This document shows, piece by piece, positions 3,367-42,135 of a stretch of 43,386 nucleotides of DNA. Source of the DNA: a virus (Duplodnaviria > Heunggongvirae > Uroviricota > Caudoviricetes); IMG/VR virus record IMGVR_UViG_2563366976_000013. One strand, given 5' to 3'. Positions within the stretch are counted from its first letter, which is position 1. Every line of letters starts with the position of its first letter. The notes under the pieces were generated by a model that was not told the DNA's origin, searched no databases, and was given only the letters and a program-made list of their open reading frames with translations. A program made the position numbers and the translations under genes.

Positions 3367-3394
3367 ACCCGCAATATTTTGCGGGCTTTTTTTT
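3367..3394 (+). terminator. Rho-independent terminator oriented for plus-strand (antisense to late operon)
   Basis: Stem CCCGCAA/TTGCGGG followed by T8 on plus strand; minus-strand version lacks U-run. Confidence 0.45.
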
Positions 3395-6300
3395 AACGTT
3401 CTTCCAGAGACTGAACCCGCTCTTTTATCTTATCCATTTCTCTGCGCTGCCATGCTGCCTCGATATAGAATAAGAGATCAGGTCTGACCCCCCATCTAGA
3501 TCCTGCTGGCGTTATTTCAACGCGCTCAATGATGTCTTCTATTACCATCACTGGATTATCATCCTCATCAACAATGATGCTCCCGTCATTATCAGTCAGC
3601 GGCATTTCCCTTTGGCCAGTAATGACGTCATCATATACTGCGGGATAATCGTCATAGCAAAGAAAGGCATAGCGGCATGTTGTGCTTTCTTCTTCCATGA
3701 GTCCGTGAGAAATAAGAACATCACGAAGTTGCTGCGCGATTACACCATGATGTATCCTCGCCCCTTCTTCCCCCTTTATAGCGACAGCGTTCAGCCATTT
3801 ATAAGCGATATACCTGACGTCACCCCAGGCATCCAGCAATGCTTCGTCAGGAGAGACCGGCTCTGTCTTTAATGTTCCGTCACTGGTAACCACAGGATTG
3901 GAGCCAAGATAAACTATCGAGAACCTGTTTCCCGGACCACCAAGAGCATTTACATTATCAAGATAAGGTTTAACATCTCCGTTCTCAAAAAGATGTTCGA
4001 GTGCGTTATATACCGCGCGACGTGGAGTACTGCTTCCGGAACCATGCAACGTTATCATTGCACCATCTGCTGAAGACGTTGTTTCACCGCCGCTAACGAT
4101 TAATCTCTGAGCGGTAACATCATCAGACGGTACTTTCTTCGCAATAATGGCGTAATTACCCTCAAGTTTGACTTCCGCGCGAACTTGTCCTGATGTACCT
4201 GCATGGACAGTCAGTGACTGGACGGCAACATCATCTGTGAAATCAACGGGTACAGGAACCGTCCTCACGCCTGACGTCGACATAAAAGTAGGAAGCGTTC
4301 TGTTAGGAGTGGCTCCGTAGACAAAATCCCTTGAAACAAATTCTTCCTGTTTAATTTTCACCCTGAAACAATACAAATCAGCCGGGTGACCATCGTGAAC
4401 ATAAGGATATTTTCTGTTGTTATCCCCTATGCTCCATGGGTTTAGAAAGTCTTCCCCACCGAAAATGTAGTACAGCCAGTTGTCTTTGATACAAACTGAA
4501 CCAACACCAACCGCAGAGTTAACTATTCCGCCCTGATAAATCTGATCAGTAACATTAACCCACTCTACATTATCCAGACTCCACTCATTGACGTTAACTC
4601 TGGTCATAAATGTTCTTGGATAATTTCCTGCATAACGGTTATCAGGTTCTCCTCCTTCCCACTCACCAAATGCGCGCTCACTGCCAAAAATAATCAGCTC
4701 ATCGCCAACTTTGGCAAAAGGAAGGTTTGAGTGATGAACATTATTTGGGAAGCGAAGAGAATTCCATGATGTACCTAAATCAGAGCTTCTGTGCAATGAA
4801 CTACCGGGTTGAGTACTTAATGTCCCCCTGGTCGTCAGATACAGAATGCCATCATAATATTTTACACATGGCTCAGATGCATTCGCCTCATATTCTACAG
4901 GTATGCGTCTGCGAACAAAGCTACCAGGAGAACCGAAAGCATCAGAGAAATAGAGTATCCCAAGCTCGCGTGGACCAATATCACCATTATGGTAGCCAAC
5001 AGCAAAACTGTTATCGCTAATCGTCGCAAAACTGTGAATCTCAGTAACAGGAGTGCTTCCGTCAACAAAAGAAGGAATAGTTCCAAGACTGGTTTTTCTC
5101 CATGGTGACGAGTGAAATGATGTGCCAAAACTCCAGTATCTACCCTCGTTATTCTGATCCACATCCTGGGTATTTTGCGTCGTAACTGTAAAGGTATTTT
5201 TATCAATAACAGTAGTCACCGTCATATTCCCGGTAACACCTGTAACACCAGAGTTTGAGAAGTTGACAAAATCACCAGCAAATAATCCGTGATCAGTAAT
5301 GCGAATATAAGCGACTTGCTGATTTGCTGCTTTCGTTATACCACCATAAACGCGAAGGCTGCGACTCATTGGGCGATCCCACAACTCTGCAACCTGCAGT
5401 TTATTTCCTCTCACGGTCCGCGTCTCAATTACAGCAAAAAGGCGATTTCTGACAACCCCCATACTCATGCAGTGATAGTTAACTGTGGGATAGTTTTTAT
5501 GTAAATCTGTAAGCCATTCCGGCGTTGTCCAGGTCTTCCCGTCATCTCCTGAGCGAACCCATGCAACATGGAGGTTATTTACACCATGGCGGTCTCCAGC
5601 CATAAAAGGCGCATAGATGACATTGTCATATACAAACGTTTTATCCTGCGTCCAGGCGTTGTACCACGGTGTATCTGTAATTTTAAATAACTCTCCCTGG
5701 ATAAAATCTTCAGAAGCATAAAAAAGAGGCTGGCCCGGTATTCTCTCAAATAAAAAACGAGCATTTTTAAATCGACTGACATCCGGAAGAGTTGATACTT
5801 TAAAAGTAAGCCCTAATCCGTCAATTTTATAACCTGGAGATGAGGCTTCAAGGCACGCGCTTATTGCAGTGGAATCGTCATTTATACCATCACCAACAGC
5901 TCCAAAATCTTTGGGGCTAATAGCATCACGCATTTTATCCTGGAACGTTCGGTACACAGCCCCAGAACCATACTGAATAAACCAACCAAAACCACCAACA
6001 ACTCCGGAGATTGCAGCATCGACATAATTACGCATTGAGCGATTATTTACAGCGTCCTGCTCAAATGATGGATCTGCAAGGTTAGAAATTTTGTTTTGCT
6101 TTGCATCGTAATATTTTGCAAGCAAAGATGGTTTCATCAATGCACGTCTGAACCACCCAAAACATTGCTGGATCAGCATCGTCAGGTAGTCAAAGGCATC
6201 TTCATGCACTTCGGGGAAAAATTTTCCCTGATTGCGAAGGTCTGTGTCCTGCACTACATCAAGCACACGATCTATCGTAATTCGCCATCCAGTAGCAAGC

Positions 6301-6512
6301 GGAGACGGAAGAACCACAGAACCGCCACTATAAGTGCCCGCCCCAGTTACCGTATAACCGGTATCCAGAACCAATTCTGTTACGTTTCCGTTCAGGTCAG
6401 ACACCTGAACAACCAGGTCTGATTTTCTGAAAATTCGAAAAGTATACGGAAACGATGTCGTAACGCCGTTACCGGTGTATTCGTTGTGGTCAACTTCGGT
6501 TGAGACCGTCAT
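3393..6512 (-). CDS. Tailspike: endo-N-acetylneuraminidase (endosialidase, K1 polysialic acid capsule depolymerase) with T7 gp17-like N-terminal adaptor and C-terminal intramolecular chaperone domain
   Basis: Long colinear matches to K1-phage endosialidase as recalled from memory (GQPLFYASEDFIQGELFKITDTPWYNAW, TVNYHCMSMGV, C-terminal ARIHHGVIAQQLRDV...CRYAFLCYDDYP); N-terminal region resembles T7 tail-fibre N-domain; RBS GGAG. Confidence 0.85.
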   Translation of the reverse strand: MTVSTEVDHNEYTGNGVTTSFPYTFRIFRKSDLVVQVSDLNGNVTELVLDTGYTVTGAGTYSGGSVVLPSPLATGWRITIDRVLDVVQDTDLRNQGKFFPEVHEDAFDYLTMLIQQCFGWFRRALMKPSLLAKYYDAKQNKISNLADPSFEQDAVNNRSMRNYVDAAISGVVGGFGWFIQYGSGAVYRTFQDKMRDAISPKDFGAVGDGINDDSTAISACLEASSPGYKIDGLGLTFKVSTLPDVSRFKNARFLFERIPGQPLFYASEDFIQGELFKITDTPWYNAWTQDKTFVYDNVIYAPFMAGDRHGVNNLHVAWVRSGDDGKTWTTPEWLTDLHKNYPTVNYHCMSMGVVRNRLFAVIETRTVRGNKLQVAELWDRPMSRSLRVYGGITKAANQQVAYIRITDHGLFAGDFVNFSNSGVTGVTGNMTVTTVIDKNTFTVTTQNTQDVDQNNEGRYWSFGTSFHSSPWRKTSLGTIPSFVDGSTPVTEIHSFATISDNSFAVGYHNGDIGPRELGILYFSDAFGSPGSFVRRRIPVEYEANASEPCVKYYDGILYLTTRGTLSTQPGSSLHRSSDLGTSWNSLRFPNNVHHSNLPFAKVGDELIIFGSERAFGEWEGGEPDNRYAGNYPRTFMTRVNVNEWSLDNVEWVNVTDQIYQGGIVNSAVGVGSVCIKDNWLYYIFGGEDFLNPWSIGDNNRKYPYVHDGHPADLYCFRVKIKQEEFVSRDFVYGATPNRTLPTFMSTSGVRTVPVPVDFTDDVAVQSLTVHAGTSGQVRAEVKLEGNYAIIAKKVPSDDVTAQRLIVSGGETTSSADGAMITLHGSGSSTPRRAVYNALEHLFENGDVKPYLDNVNALGGPGNRFSIVYLGSNPVVTSDGTLKTEPVSPDEALLDAWGDVRYIAYKWLNAVAIKGEEGARIHHGVIAQQLRDVLISHGLMEEESTTCRYAFLCYDDYPAVYDDVITGQREMPLTDNDGSIIVDEDDNPVMVIEDIIERVEITPAGSRWGVRPDLLFYIEAAWQRREMDKIKERVQSLEER

Positions 6513-6616
6513 GTTAAATCTCCAGATAGTCGCAGCACCCGTTGCGCCGCATATCTGGTTATTCTATTACCTGGAAAACCACATATGGATAGAAAGGCTG
6601 TAAATACGAATAGATA

Positions 6617-6631
6617 TTACCTTTCAGGTAA
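6617..6631. promoter_or_regulatory. Operator-type palindrome TTACCtttcaGGTAA
   Basis: Perfect 5-5-5 inverted repeat; same motif family as cI/cro operators. Confidence 0.5.
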
Positions 6632-6668
6632 TTTGCAAAACGTGCTGGATAGCAAACAAATTATTTGC

Positions 6669-6688
6669 TACTGTATAAATATACAGTT
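6669..6688 (+). promoter_or_regulatory. LexA (SOS) box TACTGTATAAATATACAGTT
   Basis: 18/20 match to consensus TACTGTATATATATACAGTA, CTGT-N8-ACAG core intact; 20 nt upstream of ATG at 6708. Confidence 0.7.
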
Positions 6689-6707
6689 ATTGCATGGAGA
6701 AGATAAG

Positions 6708-6965
6708 ATGCAGCAGTATCACTATCCACTGGAAGACGGATTTACCGAAAGGATTCACACGCCGGGAGGCGTCAGGTCACTGGTGGAGGGATCGCACTTG
6801 ATGAAATTACTCCGGGATCTCGATAAGGATGGATTTAATGTCGATGGCCCACTTGCCGAACTGACTGCACTGATTAACTACGTCACCAGCTCACAGATGT
6901 CTATGCAGGATCTGCAAACACATCTCGACTATTGTGCCGAACAATTACGAAAACAAACCAGATAA
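6708..6965 (+). CDS. Small SOS-controlled antirepressor-like protein (standalone version of the Ant C-terminal domain)
   Basis: 85 aa from ATG 6708 with RBS GGAGAAG; aligns with C-terminal about 80 aa of the three Ant paralogs (PL..G..IH.P.GV..L.E.S.LM.LL..L..DG..V.G..AELT....Y......DLQTH..Y). Confidence 0.6.
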   Translation: MQQYHYPLEDGFTERIHTPGGVRSLVEGSHLMKLLRDLDKDGFNVDGPLAELTALINYVTSSQMSMQDLQTHLDYCAEQLRKQTR

Positions 6966-6968
6966 GGT

Positions 6969-7011
6969 TTGCAATTACCAAATGGAGTGCTTATATTTAC
7001 CTTTGCGGTAA
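6969..7011 (+). promoter_or_regulatory. Promoter for ant1 leader with overlapping operator
   Basis: -35 TTGCAA (6969-6974), 17-bp spacer, -10 TATATT (6992-6997), palindrome TTACCtttgcGGTAA 6997-7011 over the start site. Confidence 0.55.
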
Positions 7012-7038
7012 ATTTACATCGCACTCCTCTTGTGCCAT

Positions 7039-7090
7039 AGTAATCAGGCACTGGCAAAATCCAGTGCCGGGATTGGTCTCCCGGATTACT
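7039..7090 (+). ncRNA. Conserved structured leader RNA element upstream of ant1 (three-way junction fold), followed by leader terminator
   Basis: AGTAATC...GATTACT outer stem enclosing hairpins GGCACTGG-caaaat-CCAGTGCC and CCGGGA-ttggtc-TCCCGG; near-identical copy in ant2 leader (11160-11213, minus strand). Confidence 0.45.
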
Positions 7091-7104
7091 ACAGAGGCAC
7101 ATAT

Positions 7105-7124
7105 GCCGCATAAGCGGTTTTTTT
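7105..7124 (+). terminator. Leader terminator/attenuator upstream of ant1
   Basis: Short GC stem GCCGC-ataa-GCGG followed by T7 run; analogous stem plus T7 in ant2 leader. Confidence 0.45.
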
Positions 7125-7278
7125 ATGTGTAAAGCGCACCTATTCTATGGTGGGCTGTGTGGGGGCACCGAAAGGTGCGCCGGGTTCCTTTGTAGCCGGT
7201 AAGACCAACTCTGCACAGTTCACCACCATCTGATTGGTCTCAGCGGTGGTGATTAACCTAACTACAAAGGTGATCGCC

Positions 7279-7971
7279 ATGAATACCAAACCTTCCATCT
7301 TTTCCTTTGAGTCATCCTGCCAGATCCGTATGTTCATGATTGACGGAGAACCTTGGTTTGTCACCAAAGATGTGTGCAATGCTTTGAATATTGATGTTAC
7401 ACAAGCGAGAAAACTTGATAAAAAAGGCTGGAACAAAAAGGGGCTGTATTCAATACAGACCCCTGGTGGAATACAAGAACTATCCATCGTTTCAGAATCA
7501 GGTCTCTACATCCTTATTCTGCGTTGCAAAGAGGCAATGACTGAGGGAACGAGAGCATTCAGATTTCTTGAATGGGTTACAGGCGAAGTACTTCCTCAGA
7601 TCCGCCGCACCGGAAGCTACATTAAAAACTCGCTCCCGCAGGAAGAACGCATAAAGATGGTTGCCGACCAGGTAGCCAACGCCACGGCGTCAGCAGTAAT
7701 GCAGGCGATGAAGATAGAGAACAAAACCTACAGCGCCCCACTGAAGCCCGGCTACCGCAGCCTGATTCATTCGCCGTCTGGTGTTCTCGGCCTGACGGAG
7801 AACTCACTGCTGATGAATCTGCTGAACCAGTTACAGGACGACGGGCACGACGTATCGGGCGCGGCGGCGGAGCTGACCACCATGTTCTGCTACATCGTCG
7901 GTGTGAGCAAATGCCTGCGTGATATCCAGACCCACGCGGAATACATCAACGACAAGGCAGGGTTCTTCTGA
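7279..7971 (+). CDS. Antirepressor paralog 1: Bro-N/KilA-N-type N-terminal domain plus shared Ant C-terminal domain
   Basis: IDGEPWFVTKDVCNAL motif (Bro-N-like); C-terminal 100 aa near-identical to the other two paralogs; start at ATG 7279 with RBS AAAGGTGA (ORF track begins at upstream TTG 7234). Confidence 0.75.
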   Translation: MNTKPSIFSFESSCQIRMFMIDGEPWFVTKDVCNALNIDVTQARKLDKKGWNKKGLYSIQTPGGIQELSIVSESGLYILILRCKEAMTEGTRAFRFLEWVTGEVLPQIRRTGSYIKNSLPQEERIKMVADQVANATASAVMQAMKIENKTYSAPLKPGYRSLIHSPSGVLGLTENSLLMNLLNQLQDDGHDVSGAAAELTTMFCYIVGVSKCLRDIQTHAEYINDKAGFF

Positions 7972-8014
7972 CGGGCGGCGGCACAGGGATGTGCCTTTAA
8001 ATAATTCTGTACGA

Positions 8015-8057
8015 TTGCAGACCGGGGGTGAATAGCGTACTATTACCTTAAAGGTAA
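8015..8057 (+). promoter_or_regulatory. Promoter/operator module (J element) upstream of YafO-like cassette 1
   Basis: -35 TTGCAG, 17-bp spacer, -10 TACTAT ending at first T of palindrome TTACCttaaaGGTAA (8043-8057). Confidence 0.5.
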
Positions 8058-8099
8058 ACCTGTTTTTATTTTATACCTGTAACTTACCGGAGATTAAAG

Positions 8100-8426
8100 A
8101 TGACAAAACTTGGATTCGTGATGAGAGGTCCGGTAAGAAGCGGAACTCATGCAAAGCGTAGCAAGAGTCGTATTTTTACTGGTAAGGTTGTAGCACGTAA
8201 ATCAGCTATTGGCTCGTTCAATAGTGAAAATGCGGCATTGCGCCATATTTTTATCAGCACAAAGCCAAGAGCATCCGCTGATGTGCATACAATGTCTATT
8301 CCTATCACAAAGAATATAAAGCGGATAAAAAAGCTCTCATCTGCAGAATCAAAAGAGATATCTTTCCGCCAGCTTAACTCATTAGAAACGCATATGAAGG
8401 AAGAGGAATTCGATGTTTTTGAGTGA
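8100..8426 (+). CDS. Putative antitoxin/partner protein of YafO-like toxin 1 (basic, no recognised fold)
   Basis: 108 aa, RBS GGAG, overlaps toxin start by 14 nt (translational coupling); weak similarity to partner of cassette 2 (ARKSAIGSFNSE vs ARRSFNGSVE). Confidence 0.35.
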   Translation: MTKLGFVMRGPVRSGTHAKRSKSRIFTGKVVARKSAIGSFNSENAALRHIFISTKPRASADVHTMSIPITKNIKRIKKLSSAESKEISFRQLNSLETHMKEEEFDVFE

Positions 8427-8925
8427 GTATAGCGGGAAGGTTATACCTACTGGTGAGTTTAAAACTGATGACTTTCTGATTTCGCTAAAAGATGCTTTTA
8501 AACAACACTGGCGTCATGGTCATCATCCTGATCTGGGAAAAGATACTCTTTTTGAAAGACCAGAGGAAGTATTAGGCTTCCATCTCAGAAAGGTTCATGT
8601 CAATATTGGTGAATATGCATCATATTCATACTCATGTACTGAACAGTGTTGGGATGAGTGGTCATATGGATTGATTGATGAACAAGGAAATTACAGGCCA
8701 AAACCAACCAGTAACGCATATCTCATATATGCAGTCAATGAAATAAGAGATGCAGCCTTACTAGCTTATTGGGACCCGCCCGCACACACCAAAGCTAACG
8801 CAAAAGTTTGGATGGATTCCGTATTGAATTTCACAAAATTATTTCATGAACGAACGAATACAGCTCCACTTAGTAGAAATGTTTATCCGTGGGATTATTC
8901 GTACAAATCCAAAAAGCCTGCATAG
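8413..8925 (+). CDS. YafO-like toxin domain protein, copy 1 (type II toxin, ribosome-dependent mRNA interferase family, by motif)
   Basis: Motifs W.HGHHPDLGKD..FERP...L.FHLRKVHV and AYLIYAV...DAALLAYWDPPAH resemble YafO from memory; paralog of 9440..9985; RBS AAGAGGAA. Confidence 0.5.
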   Translation: MFLSEYSGKVIPTGEFKTDDFLISLKDAFKQHWRHGHHPDLGKDTLFERPEEVLGFHLRKVHVNIGEYASYSYSCTEQCWDEWSYGLIDEQGNYRPKPTSNAYLIYAVNEIRDAALLAYWDPPAHTKANAKVWMDSVLNFTKLFHERTNTAPLSRNVYPWDYSYKSKKPA

Positions 8926-8935
8926 TAGTTTTTTA

Positions 8936-9155
8936 TGGACGAAACAAAAGTCAGTGCTACACTCATTGACGCCACATTGAGGTGGCTTATAGATGGAAAT
9001 TTCACAATGAAAAAAGCATTTGCTGCACTGTTCGTTTTGTTGTCTCTGGTAGCGTCAACTCAGGCCTTTGCCGGTCGTTGTCAGCACGACAGCGACACTG
9101 CTGCTGACGGCTCCCGCTGCGGTGGGCGTTCTGCGGATTCCCGCCCGGGCGGCGG
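8936..9155 (+). repeat. Direct repeat copy A (220 bp, one mismatch to copy B at 10007..10226)
   Basis: Identical sequence block containing small signal-peptide ORF; seen directly. Confidence 0.9.
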
Positions 9156-9174
9156 CACAGGGATGTGCCTTTAA
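9007..9174 (+). CDS. Small secreted Cys-containing peptide (55 aa) or gene fragment, copy 1
   Basis: Signal peptide MKKAFAALFVLLSLVASTQAFA then about 30-aa mature part with Cys residues; ends inside J junction sequence; weak RBS. Confidence 0.3.
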   Translation: MKKAFAALFVLLSLVASTQAFAGRCQHDSDTAADGSRCGGRSADSRPGGGTGMCL

Positions 9175-9205
9175 ATAATTCTGTACAGATTGCAGGTGAA
9201 TAGCG

Positions 9206-9225
9206 TACTATTACCTCAAGGGTAA
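9206..9225 (+). promoter_or_regulatory. -10 TACTAT plus operator palindrome TTACCtcaagGGTAA upstream of cassette 2
   Basis: Same J module as at 8038-8057. Confidence 0.5.
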
Positions 9226-9285
9226 ACGGATTGGTTTCATTTTTATTAATCCGTGTAATGAACTTATGAGATATGAGGTAATGTC

Positions 9286-9465
9286 ATGCGAAACGAAAAA
9301 TTGCAGATGCGTAGAGCGCAAGCTGCCGCAAGACGTTCTTTCAATGGAAGCGTAGAGTACGTAAAAGTTACTATGACAAAAGATCACGCAAGTCGCGTAT
9401 CCCGCGCTTTCTTTGATTCTCGTAACAATAAGGAAAATTATGAGTTCGTCTGCGTCGCAGAATGA
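9286..9465 (+). CDS. Putative antitoxin/partner of YafO-like toxin 2 (59 aa, below ORF-track cutoff)
   Basis: ATG 9286 with RBS GAGGT 8 nt upstream; overlaps toxin 2 start by 26 nt; manual translation MRNEKLQMRRAQAAARRSFNGSVEYVKV... Confidence 0.3.
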   Translation: MRNEKLQMRRAQAAARRSFNGSVEYVKVTMTKDHASRVSRAFFDSRNNKENYEFVCVAE

Positions 9466-9985
9466 TAAAAATCAAATTGTCAGATATAAGGGTCGAGTAT
9501 TGCATACGCAAAATTTCTCGGCCCTTTGTGCATCTGATCTTGAGCTGAAGAAAGTATCTGATGCCTTTACCCAGTATTGGAAAACGGGATACCATCCATC
9601 TCTTGGTAAAGATGCTGCATTTGCTCGTCCGACAGAAATGCTTAAACTAAATGTCAGGCATACTCATGTCGATAACCAAGACTATATTCCAGAAGATAGT
9701 GATAAAAAACACACTGGTAAAAAATCATCTTGGGATGCATGGAAAAATATAGCGTCTGTGCAAGTAAAATGCATACCAACAAGTGATTGCTTTTTAGTTT
9801 ATTCGGTAAATCACAATCGTGATGCGCTGGTTATGTTTTTTGTTGACGCAGATGCCCACAACATAACTGAGCAAGAAGAGTTTAAAGAGGCAGCAATCAC
9901 TATCAGTTATCAATTCTTTGAGAAAACAAAAACAGAACCAATGCCTTTAGAAGAAGATCTTTTTTCTGATAAATGGAAGGAATAG
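9440..9985 (+). CDS. YafO-like toxin domain protein, copy 2
   Basis: Motifs W.TGYHPSLGKD..FARP...L.LNVRHTHV and CFLVYSV...DALVMFFVDADAH; start at ATG 9440 with RBS AAGGA; followed by terminator. Confidence 0.5.
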   Translation: MSSSASQNDKNQIVRYKGRVLHTQNFSALCASDLELKKVSDAFTQYWKTGYHPSLGKDAAFARPTEMLKLNVRHTHVDNQDYIPEDSDKKHTGKKSSWDAWKNIASVQVKCIPTSDCFLVYSVNHNRDALVMFFVDADAHNITEQEEFKEAAITISYQFFEKTKTEPMPLEEDLFSDKWKE

Positions 9986-10005
9986 CCCGCAGCGCGGGCT
10001 TTTTT
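9984..10005 (+). terminator. Rho-independent terminator after toxin 2
   Basis: AGCCCGC-agc-GCGGGCT stem followed by T5. Confidence 0.6.
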
Positions 10006-10006
10006 G

Positions 10007-10226
10007 TGGACGAAACAAAAGTCAGTGCTACACTCATTGACGCCACATTGAGGTGGCTTATAGATGGAAATTTCACAATGAAAAAAGCATTTGCTGCACT
10101 GTTCGTTTTGTTGTCTCTGGTAGCGTCAACTCAGGCCTTTGCCGGTCGTTGTCAGCACGACAGCGACACTGCTGCTGACGGCTCACGCTGCGGTGGGCGT
10201 TCTGCGGATTCCCGCCCGGGCGGCGG
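10007..10226 (+). repeat. Direct repeat copy B
   Basis: 220 bp, one mismatch vs 8936..9155. Confidence 0.9.
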
Positions 10227-10239
10227 TGGCATTCGTTAA
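10078..10239 (+). CDS. Small secreted Cys-containing peptide, copy 2 (variant C-terminus)
   Basis: Same signal peptide and mature region as copy 1; differs only in last 5 residues. Confidence 0.3.
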   Translation: MKKAFAALFVLLSLVASTQAFAGRCQHDSDTAADGSRCGGRSADSRPGGGGIR

Positions 10240-10312
10240 AAACAAGGCCGCGAAAGCGGCCTGTGACATGTCACGATAGTTTCGTTTTGCACATCCCTGT
10301 GCCGCCGTTCTG

Positions 10313-10969
10313 TCAGAAGAACCCTGCTTTGTCGTTGATGTATTCCGCGTGCGTCTGGATATCACGCAGGCATTTGCTCACACCGACGATGTAGCAGAAC
10401 ATGGTGGTCAGCTCCGCCGCCGCGCCCGATACATCGTGCCCGTCTTCCTGCAACTGGTTCAGCAAATTCATCAGCAGTGAGTTCTCCGTCAGGCCGAGAA
10501 CACCAGACGGCGAATGAATCAGGCTACGGTAGCCGGGCTTCAGTGGGGCGCTGTATTCTTTTTTGTCTTCCAGCTTGATCGCCTCCATAATGGCGGGCAT
10601 GAAGCCTGACAAGACCTTCTCCACTTTTGTTTCTTGTTGTCTTAAACGTTTCTCGCATTCAATGAAGTAGCGTCGCACCTGGCGACCTTTTTCGTTACGC
10701 TCGACCATCGCCAGCTCTTTGGCTGTATCAAGGGTGAGGTGGTACTCTTTGCGGTTGTGGCCGCCTCTACCAGATGTTTGCTTTCCCAAATTGGAAAGCA
10801 AAATATAGTCTTGATTTTCAATGAATTCGTATTCTGATATGCGATTTGTAATCCATGCTGCAAACACCTTTTTAACACCTAAAAAAGCGTGCAGATCGCG
10901 GGCATTACAAAGTAGGGCTGTTTCGTTAGATATAGTGCCGTTGAATACGGGGATGAGTTGAGCGTTCAT
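10313..10969 (-). CDS. Antirepressor paralog 2: AntA-type N-terminal domain plus shared Ant C-terminal domain
   Basis: N-terminus [23 protein letters not shown], middle [20 protein letters not shown]; C-terminus near-identical to ant1 and ant3; RBS GGAGACG. Confidence 0.75.
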
Positions 10970-11125
10970 GATGGCGTCTCCACTTAGCGAATTACATCAC
11001 CACCGCTGAGACCAATCAGATGGTGGTGAACTGAACGGAGTTGGTCTTACCGGCCTAAGTGGTACCGGCGTCCTTTCGGACCCCCATTCAGCCCACCATA
11101 ATTCTGGCATGACTGTGCTATACGC

Positions 11126-11285
11126 ATAAAAAAACCACGTCTGGCGTGGTATGCGCCACTTAGTAATCCGGGAGACCAATCCCGGCACTGGATTTTGCCA
11201 GTGCCCGATTACTATGGCACAAGAGGAGTGCGATGTAAATTTACCGAAAAGGTAATGATAAACGCTAAGAAATATTAAAATCAAC
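11126..11285 (-). promoter_or_regulatory. ant2 promoter, operator (11241-11255), structured leader (11160-11213) and leader terminator (11126-11150)
   Basis: Mirror image of ant1 control region with near-identical structured element; palindrome TTACCgaaaaGGTAA. Confidence 0.5.
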
Positions 11286-11402
11286 CATATTTGGTTAATG
11301 CGTATAAAAGAGCCAGCAGCGAGAAATTGTGCCGCGACGTAAAATAACGAGCATCTGCTGGCTTACAACCAGCGATGTTTCAAATTTGTCACTATTATCA
11401 AC

Positions 11403-11750
11403 GTGCCATTCCACGGCGCAGAGCTTTATGTTGTCAATCACAACGGCGAACCGTATACCCCAATGAAACCTATCGTTGAGGGAATGGGGCTAGACTGGAA
11501 ATCTCAACATAAGAAGATTTCTCAACGCTTCTCGAAGGGTATGGTGGAAATCACCATACCTTCTGCCGGTGGGGTGCAAGCCATGATTTGTATGGCTTTA
11601 CGAAAATTGGCAGCTTGGTTGAACAGCATCAGCCCTAACAAAGTCCGTCCTGAAATCCGCGAAAGTATTGAAACATCAACCGTGTCGATATCGATACGGT
11701 TGATTATGACGGTAACTTATTGCCGTGTGTCCTATTTCTCCCACCACTAA
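11403..11750 (+). pseudogene. Probable remnant of an antirepressor N-terminal domain gene (truncated)
   Basis: GTG start; first 90 aa look like a conserved phage antirepressor N-domain (FHGAELYVVNHNGEPYTPMKPIVEGMGLDW), then low-complexity tail; near-palindrome at 11677-11702 at the break. Confidence 0.35.
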
Positions 11751-27114: not shown

Positions 27115-27191
27115 GTGGCATTAGCTCAGTTGGACAGAGCAACCGCCTTCTAAGCGGTTGGTCGCAGGTTCGAATCCTGCATGCCACGCCA
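27115..27191 (+). tRNA. tRNA-Arg (anticodon UCU, reads AGA)
   Basis: Manual cloverleaf: acceptor GTGGCAT/ATGCCAC, D-arm GCTC/GAGC, anticodon stem ACCGC/GCGGT with loop CTTCTAA, T-arm GCAGG-TTCGAAT-CCTGC, discriminator G, CCA encoded. Confidence 0.85.
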
Positions 27192-36645: not shown

Positions 36646-37230
36646 ATGAAAAGTATCCAGGACGTCCGCAGGCAAAATCTCAACGACTTGATCGACCGTG
36701 AATTCAATGGTGTTCAGACGCGGATGGCAGAAAAACTTGGAACTCAGGCAAATCTGGTAAACCGCTGGGCTCTTGGCAAGAAGGTTATCGGCGACCAGGT
36801 TGCACGAAAAATTGAAGCTGCCGCCAATAAACCCCGTAACTGGCTTGATATTGATCGTTCGCTTTCTCAGGAGGGTTTTCAGCCTGTCGGCCCGAGCGAT
36901 ATAGGTCAGCTGGCGGCTCACAACCTGGAACGCTGGATGAGCGAAAGCCGCGACCTTTCAACACAGGGAAAACTTCACCGCGCATCCGGCGTCGCCCAGG
37001 TGACAATCAGCCGCCTGTTAAACAATGAGGTCAGCGTTTCCATTTCCACCCTGGAGAATGTTGCATCCGCATTCGGGCGTCACGGATATGAACTACTGAT
37101 TCACCCGCACGACCCTGCGACTATCAACTATGACCGCTCGCGCTACGCATTGTTACCCGAAACCGAGAAAGCAAAGATCGAAAGTTACATTGAATTTGTC
37201 ATCAACCAGAACGAAAAAAGCAAAAAATAA
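36646..37230 (+). CDS. CI-like repressor with two HTH regions and no recognisable LexA/S24-type self-cleavage domain
   Basis: 194 aa; HTH-like segments near residues 20-45 and 115-140; C-terminus lacks Ala-Gly/Ser..Lys peptidase signature; divergent from Cro-like gene. Confidence 0.55.
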   Translation: MKSIQDVRRQNLNDLIDREFNGVQTRMAEKLGTQANLVNRWALGKKVIGDQVARKIEAAANKPRNWLDIDRSLSQEGFQPVGPSDIGQLAAHNLERWMSESRDLSTQGKLHRASGVAQVTISRLLNNEVSVSISTLENVASAFGRHGYELLIHPHDPATINYDRSRYALLPETEKAKIESYIEFVINQNEKSKK

Positions 37231-37538: not shown

Positions 37539-37838
37539 ATGAACGTTAATCAGCAGAAAAATCTTCAAAAAATCATGCTGGCATTCGACAAGGACTACCG
37601 CCTGTCAGAACAGCTATATGACCGACAAGTTGAACTGATCGAGAGCATCCGGCTTCATCAACTAGCCTCAACTTTCGACGCTGTAACAGGTAAAGGCGTT
37701 CGCCAGGAAGTGCTGGAGGCAGCTAAAGACAGCCCTGAGTTCGAAGAACTTATGGATGCCTACCGGCGCGAGGCAATGGCAATTATCGCCCGCTGGGATC
37801 TGGCGGATCGGATTGATGGGCAGAGGGAAGCGGCATGA
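37539..37838 (+). CDS. Hypothetical early protein
   Basis: RBS GGGAGGG; 99 aa. Confidence 0.4.
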   Translation: MNVNQQKNLQKIMLAFDKDYRLSEQLYDRQVELIESIRLHQLASTFDAVTGKGVRQEVLEAAKDSPEFEELMDAYRREAMAIIARWDLADRIDGQREAA

Positions 37839-38656
37839 AACCGGGAATTTATTTCGACATCAGCAATGAGGACTACCACGCCGGTGACGGCGTGAGTAAG
37901 TCGCAACTGGACATGGTTGCCAAGAATCCGGCGCTTCTTAAATGGGTTCAGGCAGCACCAGAAGACGAAGAGAAAAAGTCTGCACTGGATATGGGAACCG
38001 CATTGCACTGTCTGCTTCTGGAGCCTGGAGAGTTCGACAAACGCTTCATTGTTTCACCGAAATTCGATCGTCGGACGAAACAAGGTAAAGCTGACGAAGA
38101 GGCATTTCTTCGTGATGTGGCGGATATGGGGATTACGGTACTTGATGCCGAGCAGTGGCGGAAACTGGAGCTGATGCGTGATAGCGCAATGGCTCACCCG
38201 GCGGCACGCTGGATGCTGGAAGCACCTGGTTACTGCGAAGCATCAATGTACTGGAATGATGAAGAGACTGGTGAGTTGTGCCGCATTCGTCCAGACAAAT
38301 GGCTGAACGAGCACAACGTGATCGTCGACGTGAAAAAGGTTGCAGATATGGATCGTTTTGCACGCCACATCGAGGAATTCCGCTACCACGTGCAGGACGC
38401 AATGTACCGCGAAGGAGCGATGAGGGTTACTGGTCAGTCGCATGGTTTTTTCTTTCTTGCCGTGAGCGAAAGCATTGATTGTGGTCGGTATCCGGTACGC
38501 ATGTTCGCGCTGGATGCGCCGGATGTCGATGCCGGGCACGCTCTGTTCCGCCGGGATCTGAATACCTATCACGAATGCCGCATCAATGATGAATGGGGCG
38601 GCGTGGAAATCATTAAACGCCCTGAGTGGGCACGCAAACAGGATATGTACGTATGA
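37835..38656 (+). CDS. Exonuclease, PD-(D/E)XK type (RecE-like partner of RecT)
   Basis: Motifs RIRPD and VIVDVKK; immediately upstream of and overlapping recT. Confidence 0.6.
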   Translation: MKPGIYFDISNEDYHAGDGVSKSQLDMVAKNPALLKWVQAAPEDEEKKSALDMGTALHCLLLEPGEFDKRFIVSPKFDRRTKQGKADEEAFLRDVADMGITVLDAEQWRKLELMRDSAMAHPAARWMLEAPGYCEASMYWNDEETGELCRIRPDKWLNEHNVIVDVKKVADMDRFARHIEEFRYHVQDAMYREGAMRVTGQSHGFFFLAVSESIDCGRYPVRMFALDAPDVDAGHALFRRDLNTYHECRINDEWGGVEIIKRPEWARKQDMYV

Positions 38657-39534
38657 GCAATGATATCGCAATCACATCACAACCAGGCGCAACTGTAGGT
38701 ACTGCTGCGGCAATCTTCAGCCCGGAGGGCATGAATCAACTGGTGCGTTTCGCGGAGTTGATGTCACAAAGCAAAGCGACTGTACCGAAACATCTTGAAG
38801 GCAAACCTGCCGATTGTCTGGCGGTGACCATGCAGGCGGCACAGTGGGGAATGAACCCTTTCGCCGTGGCGCAGAAAACGCATGTGGTAAACGGAACGTT
38901 AGGCTACGAAGCACAGTTGGTAAACGCGGTCGTATCCTCTTCCAGCCTGCTGGCGACACGCCTGAATTATCGCTGGAGCGGTGACTGGTCGAATGTTAAC
39001 GGCAAAACAGATAAATCACCGAATCTGACGGTAACTGTGTCAGCAGTTCTTAAAGGAGAAGCAGAACCCCGTGAGCTTACCATCAGTATGGCGCAAGCCG
39101 GAGTGCGTAACTCTCCATTGTGGGAACAGGATCCGCGCCAGCAGCTTGCCTATCTTTGCACGAAACGATGGGCTCGCCTGCACGCTCCTGATGTACTTCT
39201 CGGTGTTTACACCCCTGACGAATTACAGGAAACGGCACCGCGCGTTGAGCGAGATATTACTCCGCAAACGACTACTGCTGCGGGAATGAACAGTCTGATC
39301 AACGCTAAACCAGTGAAAAAGCATGATGAGCAAACGCGTAAAGCGGATAGCCGTGATCCAGAAGAAATGCTGATGGCCTTTACCAGCGCAGCGATGAATT
39401 ACAGCACTGTCTCCGAACTGGATAAGGCTTACAAATACATTGCACAAAAACTTTCAGATGATGACGAACTGCTGGCAAAAGCCACCGACGTTTACAGCGT
39501 TCGTCGGGAAGAATTAAACGAAACATCTATGTAA
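38653..39534 (+). CDS. recT: RecT-family single-strand annealing recombinase
   Basis: Motifs CLAVTMQAAQWGMNPFA...GYEAQLVNAV characteristic of RecT; start at MSNDIAIT overlapping exonuclease stop. Confidence 0.75.
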   Translation: MSNDIAITSQPGATVGTAAAIFSPEGMNQLVRFAELMSQSKATVPKHLEGKPADCLAVTMQAAQWGMNPFAVAQKTHVVNGTLGYEAQLVNAVVSSSSLLATRLNYRWSGDWSNVNGKTDKSPNLTVTVSAVLKGEAEPRELTISMAQAGVRNSPLWEQDPRQQLAYLCTKRWARLHAPDVLLGVYTPDELQETAPRVERDITPQTTTAAGMNSLINAKPVKKHDEQTRKADSRDPEEMLMAFTSAAMNYSTVSELDKAYKYIAQKLSDDDELLAKATDVYSVRREELNETSM

Positions 39535-39941: not shown

Positions 39942-40241
39942 GTGAGAAAGTTAAGCCGACTTGAAAAATATCACATGAACAAGGTTTCAATGCGCCGTCC
40001 TTCAAAGGTTATCGCCGTTACTCCTGCGGCGATAGAGATCGAAAAACGCGCGATTGAAAGAGAGAAAAAAGGGCAGTTCCGCATTGCCGCTCACCTTTGG
40101 CTTCAGTGTATGGATGTTGCTTATGGTGATGTTGAACGTGCAAGGATCGCGGTTCGCAGGGACCAATGTATCACAAAAGGTAACGGCCTTCGCCGTGGCG
40201 ACTATAGCGGCATAGGATGTTGTGGGGTGGTTTATGACTAA
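39942..40241 (+). CDS. Hypothetical protein (start uncertain)
   Basis: ORF with GTG start; no recognised motif. Confidence 0.3.
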   Translation: MRKLSRLEKYHMNKVSMRRPSKVIAVTPAAIEIEKRAIEREKKGQFRIAAHLWLQCMDVAYGDVERARIAVRRDQCITKGNGLRRGDYSGIGCCGVVYD

Positions 40242-40884
40242 GAAATACACACTAATCTATGCAGATCCACCCTGGGTATACCGGGACAAAGCCGCAGATG
40301 GTAATCGCGGTGCCGGTTTTAAATATCCGGTTATGAGTGTGCTGGATATCTGCCGCCTTCCTGTGTGGGATTTGGCCGATGAAAACTGTCTGTTGGCCAT
40401 GTGGTGGGTGCCAACACAACCACTCGAAGCACTAAAAGTTGTTGAAGCCTGGGGATTCCGTCTGATGACCATGAAGGGCTTCACGTGGATAAAATGTGGT
40501 AGTCGACAACCAGATAAACTGGTTATGGGTATGGGACACATGACTCGCGCCAATAGTGAAGATTGCCTGTTTGCGGTAAATGGAAAACTACCTACGCGCA
40601 TTAATGCAGGGATCGTTCAGTCATTTACCGCACCGCGGCTTGAGCATTCAAGAAAGCCAGATATCGTTCGTGAAAAACTTGTGCAATTGTTAGGCGATGT
40701 TTCTCGCATTGAACTGTTCGCCCGCCAGTCGTCTCATGGTTTCGATATTTGGGGTAATCAGTGCGAAGACCCGGCAGTGCAACTACACCCTGGATACGCG
40801 TTGGATATTGCCAGATTAACAAATGCATTCAGCAATGCTCCGCTGTCACCAACAGACAACCAGGGGCGGGAGCGTGCAGCATGA
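40234..40884 (+). CDS. MT-A70-family N6-adenine DNA methyltransferase (orphan)
   Basis: Catalytic DPPW motif in IYADPPWVY; no adjacent restriction gene. Confidence 0.75.
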   Translation: MTKKYTLIYADPPWVYRDKAADGNRGAGFKYPVMSVLDICRLPVWDLADENCLLAMWWVPTQPLEALKVVEAWGFRLMTMKGFTWIKCGSRQPDKLVMGMGHMTRANSEDCLFAVNGKLPTRINAGIVQSFTAPRLEHSRKPDIVREKLVQLLGDVSRIELFARQSSHGFDIWGNQCEDPAVQLHPGYALDIARLTNAFSNAPLSPTDNQGRERAA

Positions 40885-41129: not shown

Positions 41130-41453
41130 AATCACGCCTGACGAATCGCGATTATCTCGCTATTGGTATTGCAGAGATTGCTGGACTCAGTGGCGCATGA
41201 TTTGACAATGCCGCCAGAGCTATCGCATACTGACCGCACTAGAACTTCAAAGCGGTCACCCGCACCCGATAGCTTTGCGGCTTTTTTATGCCTGCAATTT
41301 GGCATAGTCACATCCGTACAAAGGTCGGGTGGAGAGGCGTAATACAATACCCAAAAGGGGAATATGCCCGGAGCGTCTTTGAAGGCTCTAGTTGACACCC
41401 GATCACCAGCTACTAACTGGTGATTGCTAACTAAAACTTCAAAGGAGGTCATC

Positions 41454-42104
41454 ATGACCAGTCAACTCATCCCCGTATTCAACGGCACTATATCCAACGA
41501 AACCGCTCTTCTCGTTAATGCCCGTGATTTACACTCTTTCCTCGATGTAGGTAAGCGATTTGCTTCGTGGATTGTCGAACGAATTGCTGAATATGGTTTC
41601 GTTGAAAATCAAGACTTTATGATTATTTCCCAAGTTCGGGAAAAAATAGGCAGAGGCCGTCCTGCAAAAGACTACCACCTCACCCTCGATACAGCCAAAG
41701 AGCTGGCGATGGTCGAGCGTAACGAAAAAGGTCGTCAGGTACGATGCTACTTCATTGAATGCGAGAAACGTTTAAGACAACAAGAAACAAAAGTGGAGAA
41801 GGTCTTGTCAGGCTTCATGCCCGCCATTATGGAGGCGATCAAGCTGGAAGACAAAAAAGAATACAGTGCCCCGCTGAAGCCCGGCTACCGCAGCCTGATT
41901 CATTCTCCGTCTGGTGTTCTCGGCCTGACGGAGAACTCACTGCTGATGAATCTGCTGAACAAGTTACAGGAAGACGGGCACGACGTATCGGGCGCGGCGG
42001 CGGAACTGACCACCATGTTCTGCTACATCGTCGGTGTGAGTAAATGCCTGCGTGATATCCAGACGCACGCGGAGTACATCAACGACAAGGCAGGGTTCTT
42101 CTGA
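41454..42104 (+). CDS. Antirepressor paralog 3: AntA-type N-terminal domain plus shared Ant C-terminal domain
   Basis: High identity to paralog 2 across most of length; RBS AAGGAGG; hairpin CACCAGctactaaCTGGTG just upstream. Confidence 0.7.
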   Translation: MTSQLIPVFNGTISNETALLVNARDLHSFLDVGKRFASWIVERIAEYGFVENQDFMIISQVREKIGRGRPAKDYHLTLDTAKELAMVERNEKGRQVRCYFIECEKRLRQQETKVEKVLSGFMPAIMEAIKLEDKKEYSAPLKPGYRSLIHSPSGVLGLTENSLLMNLLNKLQEDGHDVSGAAAELTTMFCYIVGVSKCLRDIQTHAEYINDKAGFF

Positions 42105-42135
42105 CGGCGGCGGCACAGGGATGTGCCGGGCAAAA

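Follow-up and report, generated by a model that had tools for sequence, protein, structure and literature searches.

The ant locus described here lies in a virus record of 43,386 nucleotides (nt), IMG/VR IMGVR_UViG_2563366976_000013; this whole stretch is called the window. The window is an integrated phiV10/epsilon15-like (Uetakevirus-type) prophage of Escherichia coli. The locus contains a small stand-alone antirepressor gene, Ant, and two convergent antirepressor fusion genes, ant1 and ant2, which bracket an island of two YafO-like toxin cassettes. A third fusion gene, ant3, adjoins the integrase gene. The three fusions carry different N-terminal domains (N-domains) on a common C-terminal domain (C-domain), the coding part of which is called antC. 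Taken as part of the explanation developed below, this region is probably the anti-immunity locus of the prophage. The genes and repeats are as follows, with sizes in amino acids (aa) and open reading frames abbreviated as ORFs.

3393–6512, − strand: tailspike gene, 1,039 aa, bounding the ant locus on one side
6671–6686, + strand: perfect LexA box CTGTATAAATATACAG, 22 nt ahead of the gene for the stand-alone Ant
6708–6965, + strand: stand-alone canonical antirepressor Ant, 85 aa, fourth paralog of the common domain
7279–7971, + strand: ant1, Bro-N N-domain (Pfam Bro-N, E 1.8e-13) and Ant-type C-domain (residues ~149–230)
7716–7995, + strand: left inner inverted-repeat arm, the antC coding part and the post-stop hairpin GGCACAGGGATGTGCC
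7972–8059, + strand: junction 1, with CGGGCGGCGG microhomology, hairpin, promoter-like TTGCAG-17-TACTAT (by eye) and palindrome TTACCTTAAAGGTAA at 8043–8057
8100–8925, + strand: cassette A, a 108-aa ORF (8100–8426) overlapping a YafO-like gene (8413–8925)
8998–9174, + strand: small signal-peptide protein, copy 1, its 3′ end replaced at a recombinant joint
9146–9227, + strand: junction 2, a copy of junction 1 joining cassettes A and B, palindrome at 9211–9225
9286–9985, + strand: cassette B, a 59-aa ORF (9286–9465) and a YafO-like gene (9440–9985)
10069–10239, + strand: small signal-peptide protein, copy 2
10245–10262: bidirectional terminator hairpin between the convergent units
10288–10568, − strand: right inner inverted-repeat arm, the antC part of ant2 and the hairpin motif
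10313–10969, − strand: ant2, AntA N-domain (Pfam AntA, E 4e-26) and Ant-type C-domain
11403–11750, + strand: remnant of a P22-type antirepressor N-domain (Pfam P22_AR_N, E 7e-32)
12066 onward: internal-virion/injection genes, on the other side of the ant locus
36646–37230, + strand: Rep, the repressor of the prophage, presumed to be targeted by the Ant domains
37835–38656, + strand: PDDEXK exonuclease (Pfam DUF3799, E 6.5e-22)
38626–39534, + strand: RecT (Pfam RecT, E 9e-32)
41454–42127, + strand: ant3, AntA N-domain (Pfam AntA, E 8e-28) and Ant-type C-domain, then the post-stop hairpin motif, adjoining the integrase gene

The Ant domain and its presumed target

In a protein alignment of ant1–3, the common C-domain begins at about ant1 residue 149. 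The initial annotation had described three antirepressor paralogs with one C-terminal domain and exchanged N-domains, Bro-N in ant1 and AntA in ant2 and ant3. The shared domain, ~80 aa at 95–96% nt identity, and the N-domain types are borne out, and the three paralogs stand; a fourth copy of the domain, the gene at 6708–6965, had been overlooked.

Residues 149–225 of ant1 match residues 3–79 of the 86-aa chain E of PDB 5D50 (E 1.6e-13). The stand-alone Ant matches the same chain, the SPC32H ‘Anti-repressor protein’, over residues 2–84 versus 3–85 (E 4e-47). By this homology, the C-domain of ant1, ant2 and ant3 is an SPC32H-type Ant domain. The LexA pattern has three matches in the window, versus 0.55 expected, and that at 6671–6686 is the only one in the ant locus; the pattern search of the window found none before ant1, ant2 or ant3. 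Thus, the 5D50 homology and the LexA box together describe a prophage with four Ant-domain genes, one canonical and under apparent SOS control, and three fusions.

A phage ZX5 protein that carries the label ‘hypothetical protein’ is identical (100%) to the stand-alone Ant, which falls in PHROG 450, labelled ‘unknown function’. No Pfam or NCBIfam model covers the domain, and an NCBIfam scan of ten locus proteins gave no match. A search with the C-domain alone returned 19 matches, short proteins only; a full-length query was needed to reach the fusions. Bro-N–antC fusions then number 962 homologs, in Escherichia, Salmonella, Citrobacter, Klebsiella and Enterobacter, and these are annotated for Bro-N only. 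Stand-alone antC homologs of ~95 aa, 60–72% identical, occur in Klebsiella and Raoultella. The stand-alone Ant of the window is ~37–39% identical to the C-domains of ant1–3.

Rep matches 5D50 chain A, the SPC32H ‘Repressor’, over its full length (E 3.4e-42). It is 99% identical to the phiV10 and ZX5 repressors and, among the records listed, 98.5–99.5% identical across E. coli phiV10-like phages. According to PMC9638917, the SPC32H Ant, as a tetramer, binds two dimers of Rep and disrupts the Rep tetramer. PMC7380047 describes LexA-controlled production of Ant in Salmonella prophages, the SPC32H study included.

The experimental link to the fusions comes from ZX5. Overexpression of ZX5 ORF4 in phage ZX5 lowered lysogeny ~1,000-fold (PMC9782041). 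ORF4 is 80% identical to ant1, with a single difference in the 82 C-domain residues 149–230. This result supports an action of a Bro-N–antC fusion on ZX5 lysogeny. The small Ant of ZX5, ‘hypothetical’ in the annotation, went unrecognised in PMC9782041; the antirepressor gene of that study is a different one.

The window has 16 copies of the palindrome TTACC-N5-GGTAA (13 exact), versus 0.71 expected. The positions are 6617, 6997, 8043, 9211, 11241, 26778, 27395, 30328, 30346, 34190, 34252, 36191, 36528, 36576, 37288 and 37350. The last four cluster either side of rep. Copies overlap the −35 hexamer of both isrK promoters (6997 and 11241; see below), lie in both cassette junctions (8043 and 9211) and stand upstream of the canonical Ant gene (6617). 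The palindrome is kept in 14 of 14 aligned leaders. From its placement and enrichment, TTACC-N5-GGTAA is probably the Rep operator, and we treat it as a candidate. For epsilon15, the operator reportedly has a consensus of the form ATTACC...GGTAAT. The junction repeats may be conserved because they look like repressor-controlled promoters of the cargo cassettes. Were the palindrome the Rep operator, Rep would command a wide regulon, toxin cassettes included. Two copies lie near a phage-borne tRNA gene at 27115–27188 (Rfam 73.3 bits), which by its anticodon loop, CUUCUAA, reads by eye as tRNA-Arg(UCU).

These observations bear on whether the fusions act at home or abroad. The fused paralogs could be trans-acting weapons, or agents of cross-talk, against the Reps of other prophages, with only the stand-alone Ant serving the phage’s own switch. 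Trans-acting antirepressor cross-talk between Salmonella prophages is documented (PMC3121763; summarised in PMC7380047). The ~37–39% identity of antC to the resident canonical Ant would suit such a role; the Klebsiella and Raoultella stand-alone homologs may be canonical Ants of other Rep types, and the Bro-N–antC fusions are spread across the Enterobacteriaceae. We nevertheless consider this unlikely. ORF4 cut the lysogeny of ZX5 itself, the Rep of which is 99% identical to the window Rep. Furthermore, the unit promoters carry the same palindrome as the rep flanks, so they are apparently wired to the phage’s own control.

Leader RNAs and their recognition sites

The initial annotation noted mirrored leader regions before ant1 and ant2. 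They are indeed present, and they consist of isrK and C4 antisense-RNA elements. The ant3 leader comes from a different RNA family. Each isrK/C4 unit has two recognition sites in three copies each. Site a is found in the isrK linker (a1), in the loop of C4 hairpin 2 (a′) and over the ant ribosome-binding site (a2). Site b is found in the loop of isrK hairpin 2 (b1), in the 3′ junction of C4 (b′) and in the loop of a post-C4 hairpin (b2). The leaders are arranged as follows.

6986–7278, + strand: leader 1, an outer inverted-repeat arm
6997–7011 and 7013–7041: leader 1 palindrome TTACCTTTGCGGTAA and promoter-like TTTACA-17-CATAGT
7048–7124: leader 1 isrK (Rfam 74.7 bits), with b1 7073–7079, a1 7089–7097 and terminator 7105–7118
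7143–7230: leader 1 C4 RNA (Rfam 78.6 bits), with a′ loop 7187–7195 and b′ 7202–7208
7234–7240 and 7262–7270: leader 1 b2, in a hairpin, and a2, over the ant1 ribosome-binding site
10970–11266, − strand: leader 2, an outer arm
10980–10987 and 11009–11015: leader 2 a2 and b2
11019–11103, − strand: leader 2 C4 RNA (Rfam 61.2 bits), with b′ 11041–11047 and a′ 11055–11062
11128–11204, − strand: leader 2 isrK (Rfam 67.7 bits), with a1 11156–11163, b1 11173–11179 and terminator 11134–11150
11211–11239 and 11241–11255: leader 2 promoter-like TTTACA-17-CATAGT and palindrome
41196–41453, + strand: leader 3, with a TTGACA promoter-like hexamer by eye
41245–41252: leader 3 upstream a1 site, ahead of a terminator
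41323–41412: leader 3 C4-like RNA of the sRNA-Xcc1 family, RF02221 (Rfam 62.9 bits), with a′ 41377–41384
41437–41444: leader 3 a2, over the ant3 ribosome-binding site

All isrK, C4 and sRNA-Xcc1 matches lie above the Rfam gathering scores (C4 45, isrK 50, RF02221 53). Stx-phage antB leaders, of which two carry the annotation sRNA-Xcc1, share 86.6% identity with leader 3. The 3′ end of C4 is tRNA-like to the eye (CACCACCA), a2 sits 8–10 nt upstream of the ant start codon, and there is no icd-like ORF. Folding of the whole leader 1 predicts pairing in cis of a1/b1 with a′/b′; folding of leader 3 places a′ on a2. A 29-codon ORF at 7148–7234 coincides with the unit 1 C4 and recalls orf45 of Gifsy-1. 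A conserved upstream ORF inside C4, as an orf45 analog, was considered and rejected, because the unit 2 equivalent ends after three codons.

Recognition sites were compared by aligning 14 units, from the window and eight relatives, and then by parsing 78 units from ~90 loci. There are four a-types (CUACAAAGG, CUAAGUGG, CUAAAAGG and CUAGUAG) and two b-types (UUGGUCU and UUGGCGU), in six combinations. The three copies of site a match one another in 78 of 78 parsed units, and those of site b in 77 of 78. The sole b mismatch is in a visible recombinant, L020 (IMG/VR UViG 3300045988_096329), which at ~6600–10600 has three isrK-C4-ant units. The b1 of its middle unit is mismatched to its own b′ and b2, which indicates a crossover inside the leader. 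The potential of C4 to pair with isrK and with the ant ribosome-binding site is thus shown by covariation.

In the window, unit 1 has a′ CCUUUGUAG (7187–7195) facing a2 CUACAAAGG (7262–7270), unit 2 has a′ CCACUUAG facing a2 CUAAGUGG, and unit 3 has a′ CUUUGAAG (41377–41384) facing CUUCAAAG (41437–41444, and again at 41245–41252). Units 1 and 2 have the same b-type; in unit 3 only a sites were found. Since the recognition sites differ between units and co-vary three ways with the ant ribosome-binding site, units 1, 2 and 3 are predicted to differ in specificity. In every one of the 12 multi-unit loci, the units that reside together are distinct at one site or more. In an RNAduplex matrix the cognate pairs were best or near best, with noisy a2 sites, and the matrix is not used as evidence of clean orthogonality.

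Rearranged forms of the locus

The repeats were said in the initial annotation to mirror each other around the toxin segment over several hundred bp. BLAST of 6900–8100 against the reverse complement of 10200–11350 gave two collinear blocks, one of 300 nt (93% identity) and one of 270 nt (84% identity). Inverted repeats around the island are therefore present, but each arm is not one continuous repeat, because the N-domain coding parts between the blocks (7279–7715 and 10569–10969) are unrelated. The inner arms pair 7716–7972 with 10312–10568 (257 nt, 95%). The outer leader arms pair 6986–7091 with 11161–11266 (106 nt, 94%) and 7195–7253 with 10996–11054 (59 nt, 95%), both falling in one ~270-nt leader alignment at 84%. 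In addition, ant1 and ant3 share a direct repeat (7716–7974 and 41849–42107, 259 nt, 95%), and ant2 and ant3 an inverted one (10312–10750 and 41667–42105, 439 nt, 96%), between which a 31-kb inversion is predicted.

A downstream junction sequence of 22 nt had been reported as common to the three genes. It is exact after ant1 and ant3, and also after the first small-peptide gene; after ant2, 19 of the 22 bases match. An 18-mer of the junction, GGCGGCACAGGGATGTGC, has exactly four copies, at 7977, 9151 and 42109 on the + strand and at 10289–10306 on the − strand, versus 0 expected by chance.

The region 6500–11500 is matched piecewise by phages TL-2011b, phiV10, ZX5, phiv142-3 and others, and it has matches in ~1,000 of 5,426 complete E. 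coli genomes. No single record among the matching phages and the 5,426 genomes has the arrangement of this region in full. Painting of the window modules onto 8 annotated relatives and 80 IMG/VR loci describes the locus as a mosaic of parts in fixed order: small Ant, an isrK-C4-N-domain-antC unit, junction, cargo, small-peptide gene and terminator spacer. A second, convergent unit is optional at the end of the series. The phiV10 locus is a minimal form, with one unit.

The recombination and inversion that had been predicted from the repeats are borne out by isomers of opposite orientation in related prophages, two finished E. coli genomes among them. An outer inversion separates IMG/VR locus L015 from that of E. 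coli A_5 (L005): 3,249 nt align without gaps at 99.1% identity in opposite orientation, and the collinear flanks end inside the isrK leader arms. In a further locus (L050), the ant2 module of the window lies on the left and the ant1 module on the right (98.4–98.5%), with the island direct (98.9%). This arrangement is the product expected of one outer and one inner exchange. An inverted island is found in L015, L020 and L055 and in the finished genomes MS 196-1 and CUVET21-H2. In MS 196-1 a Bro-N unit has to its right, on the minus strand, an ORF6N antirepressor, WP_001244090, and a YafO cassette; MLI109 has the same proteins on the plus strand, in the left slot. CUVET21-H2 has WP_000127505 with its cargo at the right on the minus strand and WP_000126407 at the left on the plus strand, the reverse of AH20E044 and UTME-9. 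The inverted island was seen only with a second antC arm or, in L055, on a contig that ends before an arm could show. None of the ~55 single-unit loci has it.

Domain shuffling, also predicted, is extensive. At least eight N-domain variants, drawn from four Pfam families, share this one C-domain: Bro-N (four types), AntA (two), P22_AR_N (one) and ORF6N (one). The N-domain DNA of ant2 is ~91% identical to that of Stx-phage antirepressors, and the leader and N-domain of ant3 together are 86.6% identical to Stx-phage antB. In 23 complete genomes the integrase-proximal slot holds the ant2 coding sequence (98% identity), preceded by a leader-3-type leader and with the crossover at the start codon. 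The remnant at 11403–11750 is truncated, divergent from leader 2 and labelled a pseudogene in relatives. The intact Arc-sar-P22_AR_N-antC gene of TL-2011b has the opposite orientation. TL-2011b and L004 (5985–7169) have the P22_AR_N domain intact and joined to the same antC, alongside Arc and sar RNA; in L020 the P22-type N-domain is flipped and lies between two isrK units.

antC itself is a hyper-mosaic exchange hotspot. Across 7716–7971 and its homologous copies in L001–L091, nucleotide diversity (π) is 0.041, versus 0.002–0.013 in neighbouring coding modules and 0.020 in the 77-nt isrK. There are 84 distinct alleles in 93 copies, versus 3–27 alleles in the neighbouring modules, and the minimum number of recombination events (Rm) is at least 18 in 256 nt, versus 0–3. 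Of the variable sites, 43 are synonymous-only and 23 change amino acids. The changes were seen to be shuffled regardless of slot or N-domain type.

It may be argued that the repeats are passive footprints of past mosaic assembly, that recombination is too rare to matter, and that the ant units are redundant or decaying. This we regard as quite unlikely. A decaying set of genes is not what three intact fusion ORFs with matched a′ and a2 sites suggest, even though a P22-type ant remnant and insertion sequence (IS) elements mark decay in the region. Most sampled loci have a single unit, the inverted forms are few, and the deletion product of ant1 and ant3 (sought as a synthetic junction of Bro-N ant1 and the integrase flank) was found in 0 of 5,426 complete E. 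coli genomes at ≥80% query cover, all of which fits a passive origin. Against it stand the at least 18 recombination events in 256 nt of antC, where diversity is ~4-fold or more that of the flanking coding modules and mostly synonymous, and several independent isomers and slot swaps with modules 98–99% identical.

How the exchanges come about is a separate question. The phage encodes a RecT and an exonuclease. Screening of the mid-sized ORFs turned up no serine invertase or resolvase and no second tyrosine recombinase; the integrase, at the end of the prophage, was the sole recombinase seen. The likely cause is thus homologous recombination between the arms, with the exonuclease and RecT as candidate catalysts for exchange between repeats. 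A programmed site-specific switch of the Hin/Gin/Cin or shufflon type, toggling the toxin island or choosing an antirepressor, is most improbable. The screened ORFs lack an invertase, and inverted repeats that bracket cargo, although they resemble invertible elements, are here arms of 270–280 nt at 84–95% identity, versus short crossover sites. The short hairpin motif that each junction carries might in principle serve as the site of a recombinase, but exchange points are scattered through antC. Recombinant leaders also exist, such as that of the middle unit of L020, and single-unit loci never have an inverted island.

The cargo has its own record of exchange. The YafO_toxin (PF13957) match of cassette A (E 7e-4, 20.1 bits) is under the Pfam cut-off of 25 bits, and that of cassette B (E 1.1e-5, 25.9 bits) is just over it. 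Cassette A, with RefSeq relatives labelled ‘YafO family toxin’, falls in PHROG 1651 and 5933, and cassette B in PHROG 6685 and 1651. The ORFs upstream of the YafO-like genes belong to no family beyond PHROGs of unknown function; the 108-aa ORF at 8100–8426 is a candidate antitoxin, by inference. A small-peptide gene of 56–58 aa (copy 1 in PHROG 14503, ‘membrane associated protein’) follows each cassette, and 8929–9155 is a direct repeat of 10000–10226 (99%). The 10-mer CGGGCGGCGG follows the ant1 stop (7972), recurs at the A/B joint (9146) and stands again where the intact peptide gene ends (10217); this suggests that the tandem cassettes arose by unequal exchange at this sequence. Such an exchange would also have rewritten the last residues of peptide copy 1. 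The tandem A–B joint looks window-specific, since it is absent from all 5,426 complete E. coli genomes and from the other painted loci. The slot between the small Ant gene and leader 1 holds cargo elsewhere: a third YafO-type cassette on the opposite strand in E. coli Combat2C1 (L007, 2990–4001), and a 729-nt minus-strand ORF in several relatives (L002, L003).

Beyond the locus, near-identical relatives of the tailspike (3393–6512) are labelled ‘endosialidase catalytic beta-propeller domain-containing protein’, and these labels suggest a K1-capsule-specific phiV10-like prophage. Just upstream of the ant3 unit are a PerC-family regulator (39942–40241) and an MT-A70 DNA methyltransferase (40222–40884); the arrangement recurs in E. 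coli 4/4 (L092), the prophage of which abuts guaA. At the left end of the window, a glycine-zipper/TraT-like lipoprotein (1–516) and a DUF5384 protein (532–1071) are probably lysogenic-conversion morons.

A model for the locus and related systems

The explanation that we consider probable is a Rep/Ant anti-immunity locus in which RNA-locked Ant fusions recombine homologously between shared handles. Lysogeny would be held by Rep. Given the LexA box, the stand-alone Ant is expected on SOS induction, when it would inactivate Rep, as shown for the SPC32H homologs. Each fusion unit would consist of a promoter under the palindrome, as putative Rep operator, a terminated isrK-like RNA, a C4-type RNA and the b2/a2 sites. 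By analogy with c4 of P1/P7 and IsrK of Gifsy-1, C4 would mask the ant ribosome-binding site, and isrK RNA may compete for C4. The three units would then be largely separate locks. With Rep near-invariant, the RNA specificities would set which incoming or resident relatives express an antirepressor, a heteroimmunity of the P1/P7 type.

As handles for homologous recombination, a unit would have the isrK leader at one end and, at the other, the Ant domain together with the post-stop hairpin. In two convergent units these form nested inverted repeats. Exchange between the outer arms would flip the whole segment, exchange between the inner arms would flip the YafO island, and both would swap ant modules between slots. 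RecA, or the phage RecT and exonuclease, may catalyze these events.

A bolder form of the proposal is possible, and we advance it tentatively. On this view, what determines immunity and anti-immunity specificity in E. coli phiV10-like phages would be not Rep but a combinatorial RNA code, made up of the four a-types and two b-types, with differently keyed fusions stacked as an arsenal in one prophage. Through the isrK leader and the Ant domain as handles, relatives, and also the two or three slots of a single genome, would exchange keys, N-domains and toxin cargo via RecT/RecA. If so, flipping would also change the unit and the cargo that lie downstream of the SOS-controlled Ant promoter.

Several points weigh against the proposed locus and its switching. 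Inverted forms make up ~3 of 24 loci with two antC arms, and they may date from old events, not from switching that still goes on. The operator assignment comes from position and enrichment only, the ZX5 evidence is one of overexpression, and the regulation of the units is read wholly from complementarity and homology. The fused Ant domain has just the ~37–39% identity to the phage’s own canonical Ant given above, and its target thus need not be this Rep. An AlphaFold2 model of ant1, from a 35-sequence alignment, has moderate confidence in the N-domain and a predicted local distance difference test score (pLDDT) of 40–55 in the C-domain, which precludes confirmation at the level of fold. The 12 of 12 loci with differing units have a chance probability of ~0.06, by our own estimate from type frequencies, so that selection for orthogonality is suggested rather than established. 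Crude duplex energies put the unit 1 C4 loop with the unit 3 site at −14.1 kcal/mol, versus −15.4 kcal/mol with its own.

The locus matters in three respects. For annotation, homology would assign a Rep-binding Ant function to the unannotated C-terminal half of the common ‘BRO-N domain-containing’ prophage proteins, and would name the true SOS antirepressor that records, including ZX5, now call ‘hypothetical’. The locus offers a natural, sequence-readable system for antisense-RNA heteroimmunity of the P1 type in integrating podophages, with six key/lock combinations. For genome evolution, it traces down to the nucleotide, and in finished genomes, how nested inverted repeats rearrange toxin cargo and regulatory modules. 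The prophages concerned are those of pathogenic E. coli, with a tailspike that by its labels is a K1-type endosialidase.

Much of this is familiar in its parts: the SPC32H Ant and Rep, LexA control, C4 and isrK RNAs, the Bro-N, AntA and P22_AR_N N-domains, YafO, and mosaic phage evolution. Within the literature searched, four things were found undescribed: the C-terminal half of the ‘BRO-like’ family as an SPC32H-type Ant domain, the stacking in one phage of an apparently LexA-controlled Ant and putatively RNA-locked Ant fusions of different predicted specificity, the three-way combinatorial covariation of recognition sites, and the nested inverted-repeat geometry with documented natural isomers.

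The closest protein parallel is the Rep–Ant pair of SPC32H, a Salmonella epsilon15-like phage (PDB 5D50/5D4Z). The stand-alone Ant and Rep are homologous, a LexA box precedes Ant, and the phage type and the position of the Ant gene next to the tailspike are the same; in phiV10 the annotation likens the small ORF to epsilon15 gp19. In contrast to SPC32H, the window has the Ant domain three more times, as the C-terminus of larger fusions, and these lack a LexA box and lie under antisense-RNA leaders.

The leaders resemble immI of P1/P7 (c4-icd-ant; RF01695). In both, an antirepressor operon has a C4-family RNA in its leader, two recognition elements are complementary to upstream and downstream sites, and specificity variants occur beside an interchangeable primary repressor that probably controls the promoter; the palindrome at the isrK promoters parallels the control of the P1 immI operon by C1. 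The window differs in having no icd, in an a2 that lies directly on the ant ribosome-binding site, in upstream sites placed in a separate terminated isrK RNA, and in several units per genome. Its antirepressor protein is unrelated to P1 Ant1/2 beyond a general role.

The isrK-orf45(STnc1160)-anrP operon of Gifsy-1 (PMC4825925; RF01394), itself related to P4 seqA-CI-seqC (PMC4825925), likewise has an isrK with a promoter and a leaky terminator, a structured element and an antirepressor gene. The predicted cis pairing of the middle of the window isrK with the downstream element resembles its inactive ‘structure A’ (PMC4825925). Unlike in Gifsy-1, the upstream ORF is not conserved, with 29 codons in unit 1 versus 3 in unit 2, so translational coupling through an orf45 equivalent is unlikely to be general in the window units. 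No antQ-type antiterminator was found as a downstream target in the genes examined.

As for the protein modules, the N-domains belong to the Bro-N/KilA-N/AntA/P22_AR_N families (PF02498, PF08346, PF10547; P22 immI Arc-sar-Ant), and in TL-2011b the same slot is filled by Arc, sar RNA and a P22_AR_N Ant. Iyer et al. in 2002 reportedly described extensive domain shuffling in this superfamily. The Hin/Gin/Cin systems and the shufflon have an invertase gene and short fixed crossover sites, a combination not seen in the window, given its 270–280-nt arms and the ORFs screened. What sets the locus apart from other shuffled antirepressors is that the partner domain corresponds to a structurally characterised repressor-binding protein, that the exchange handles are visible at the nucleotide level, and that natural isomers are documented.

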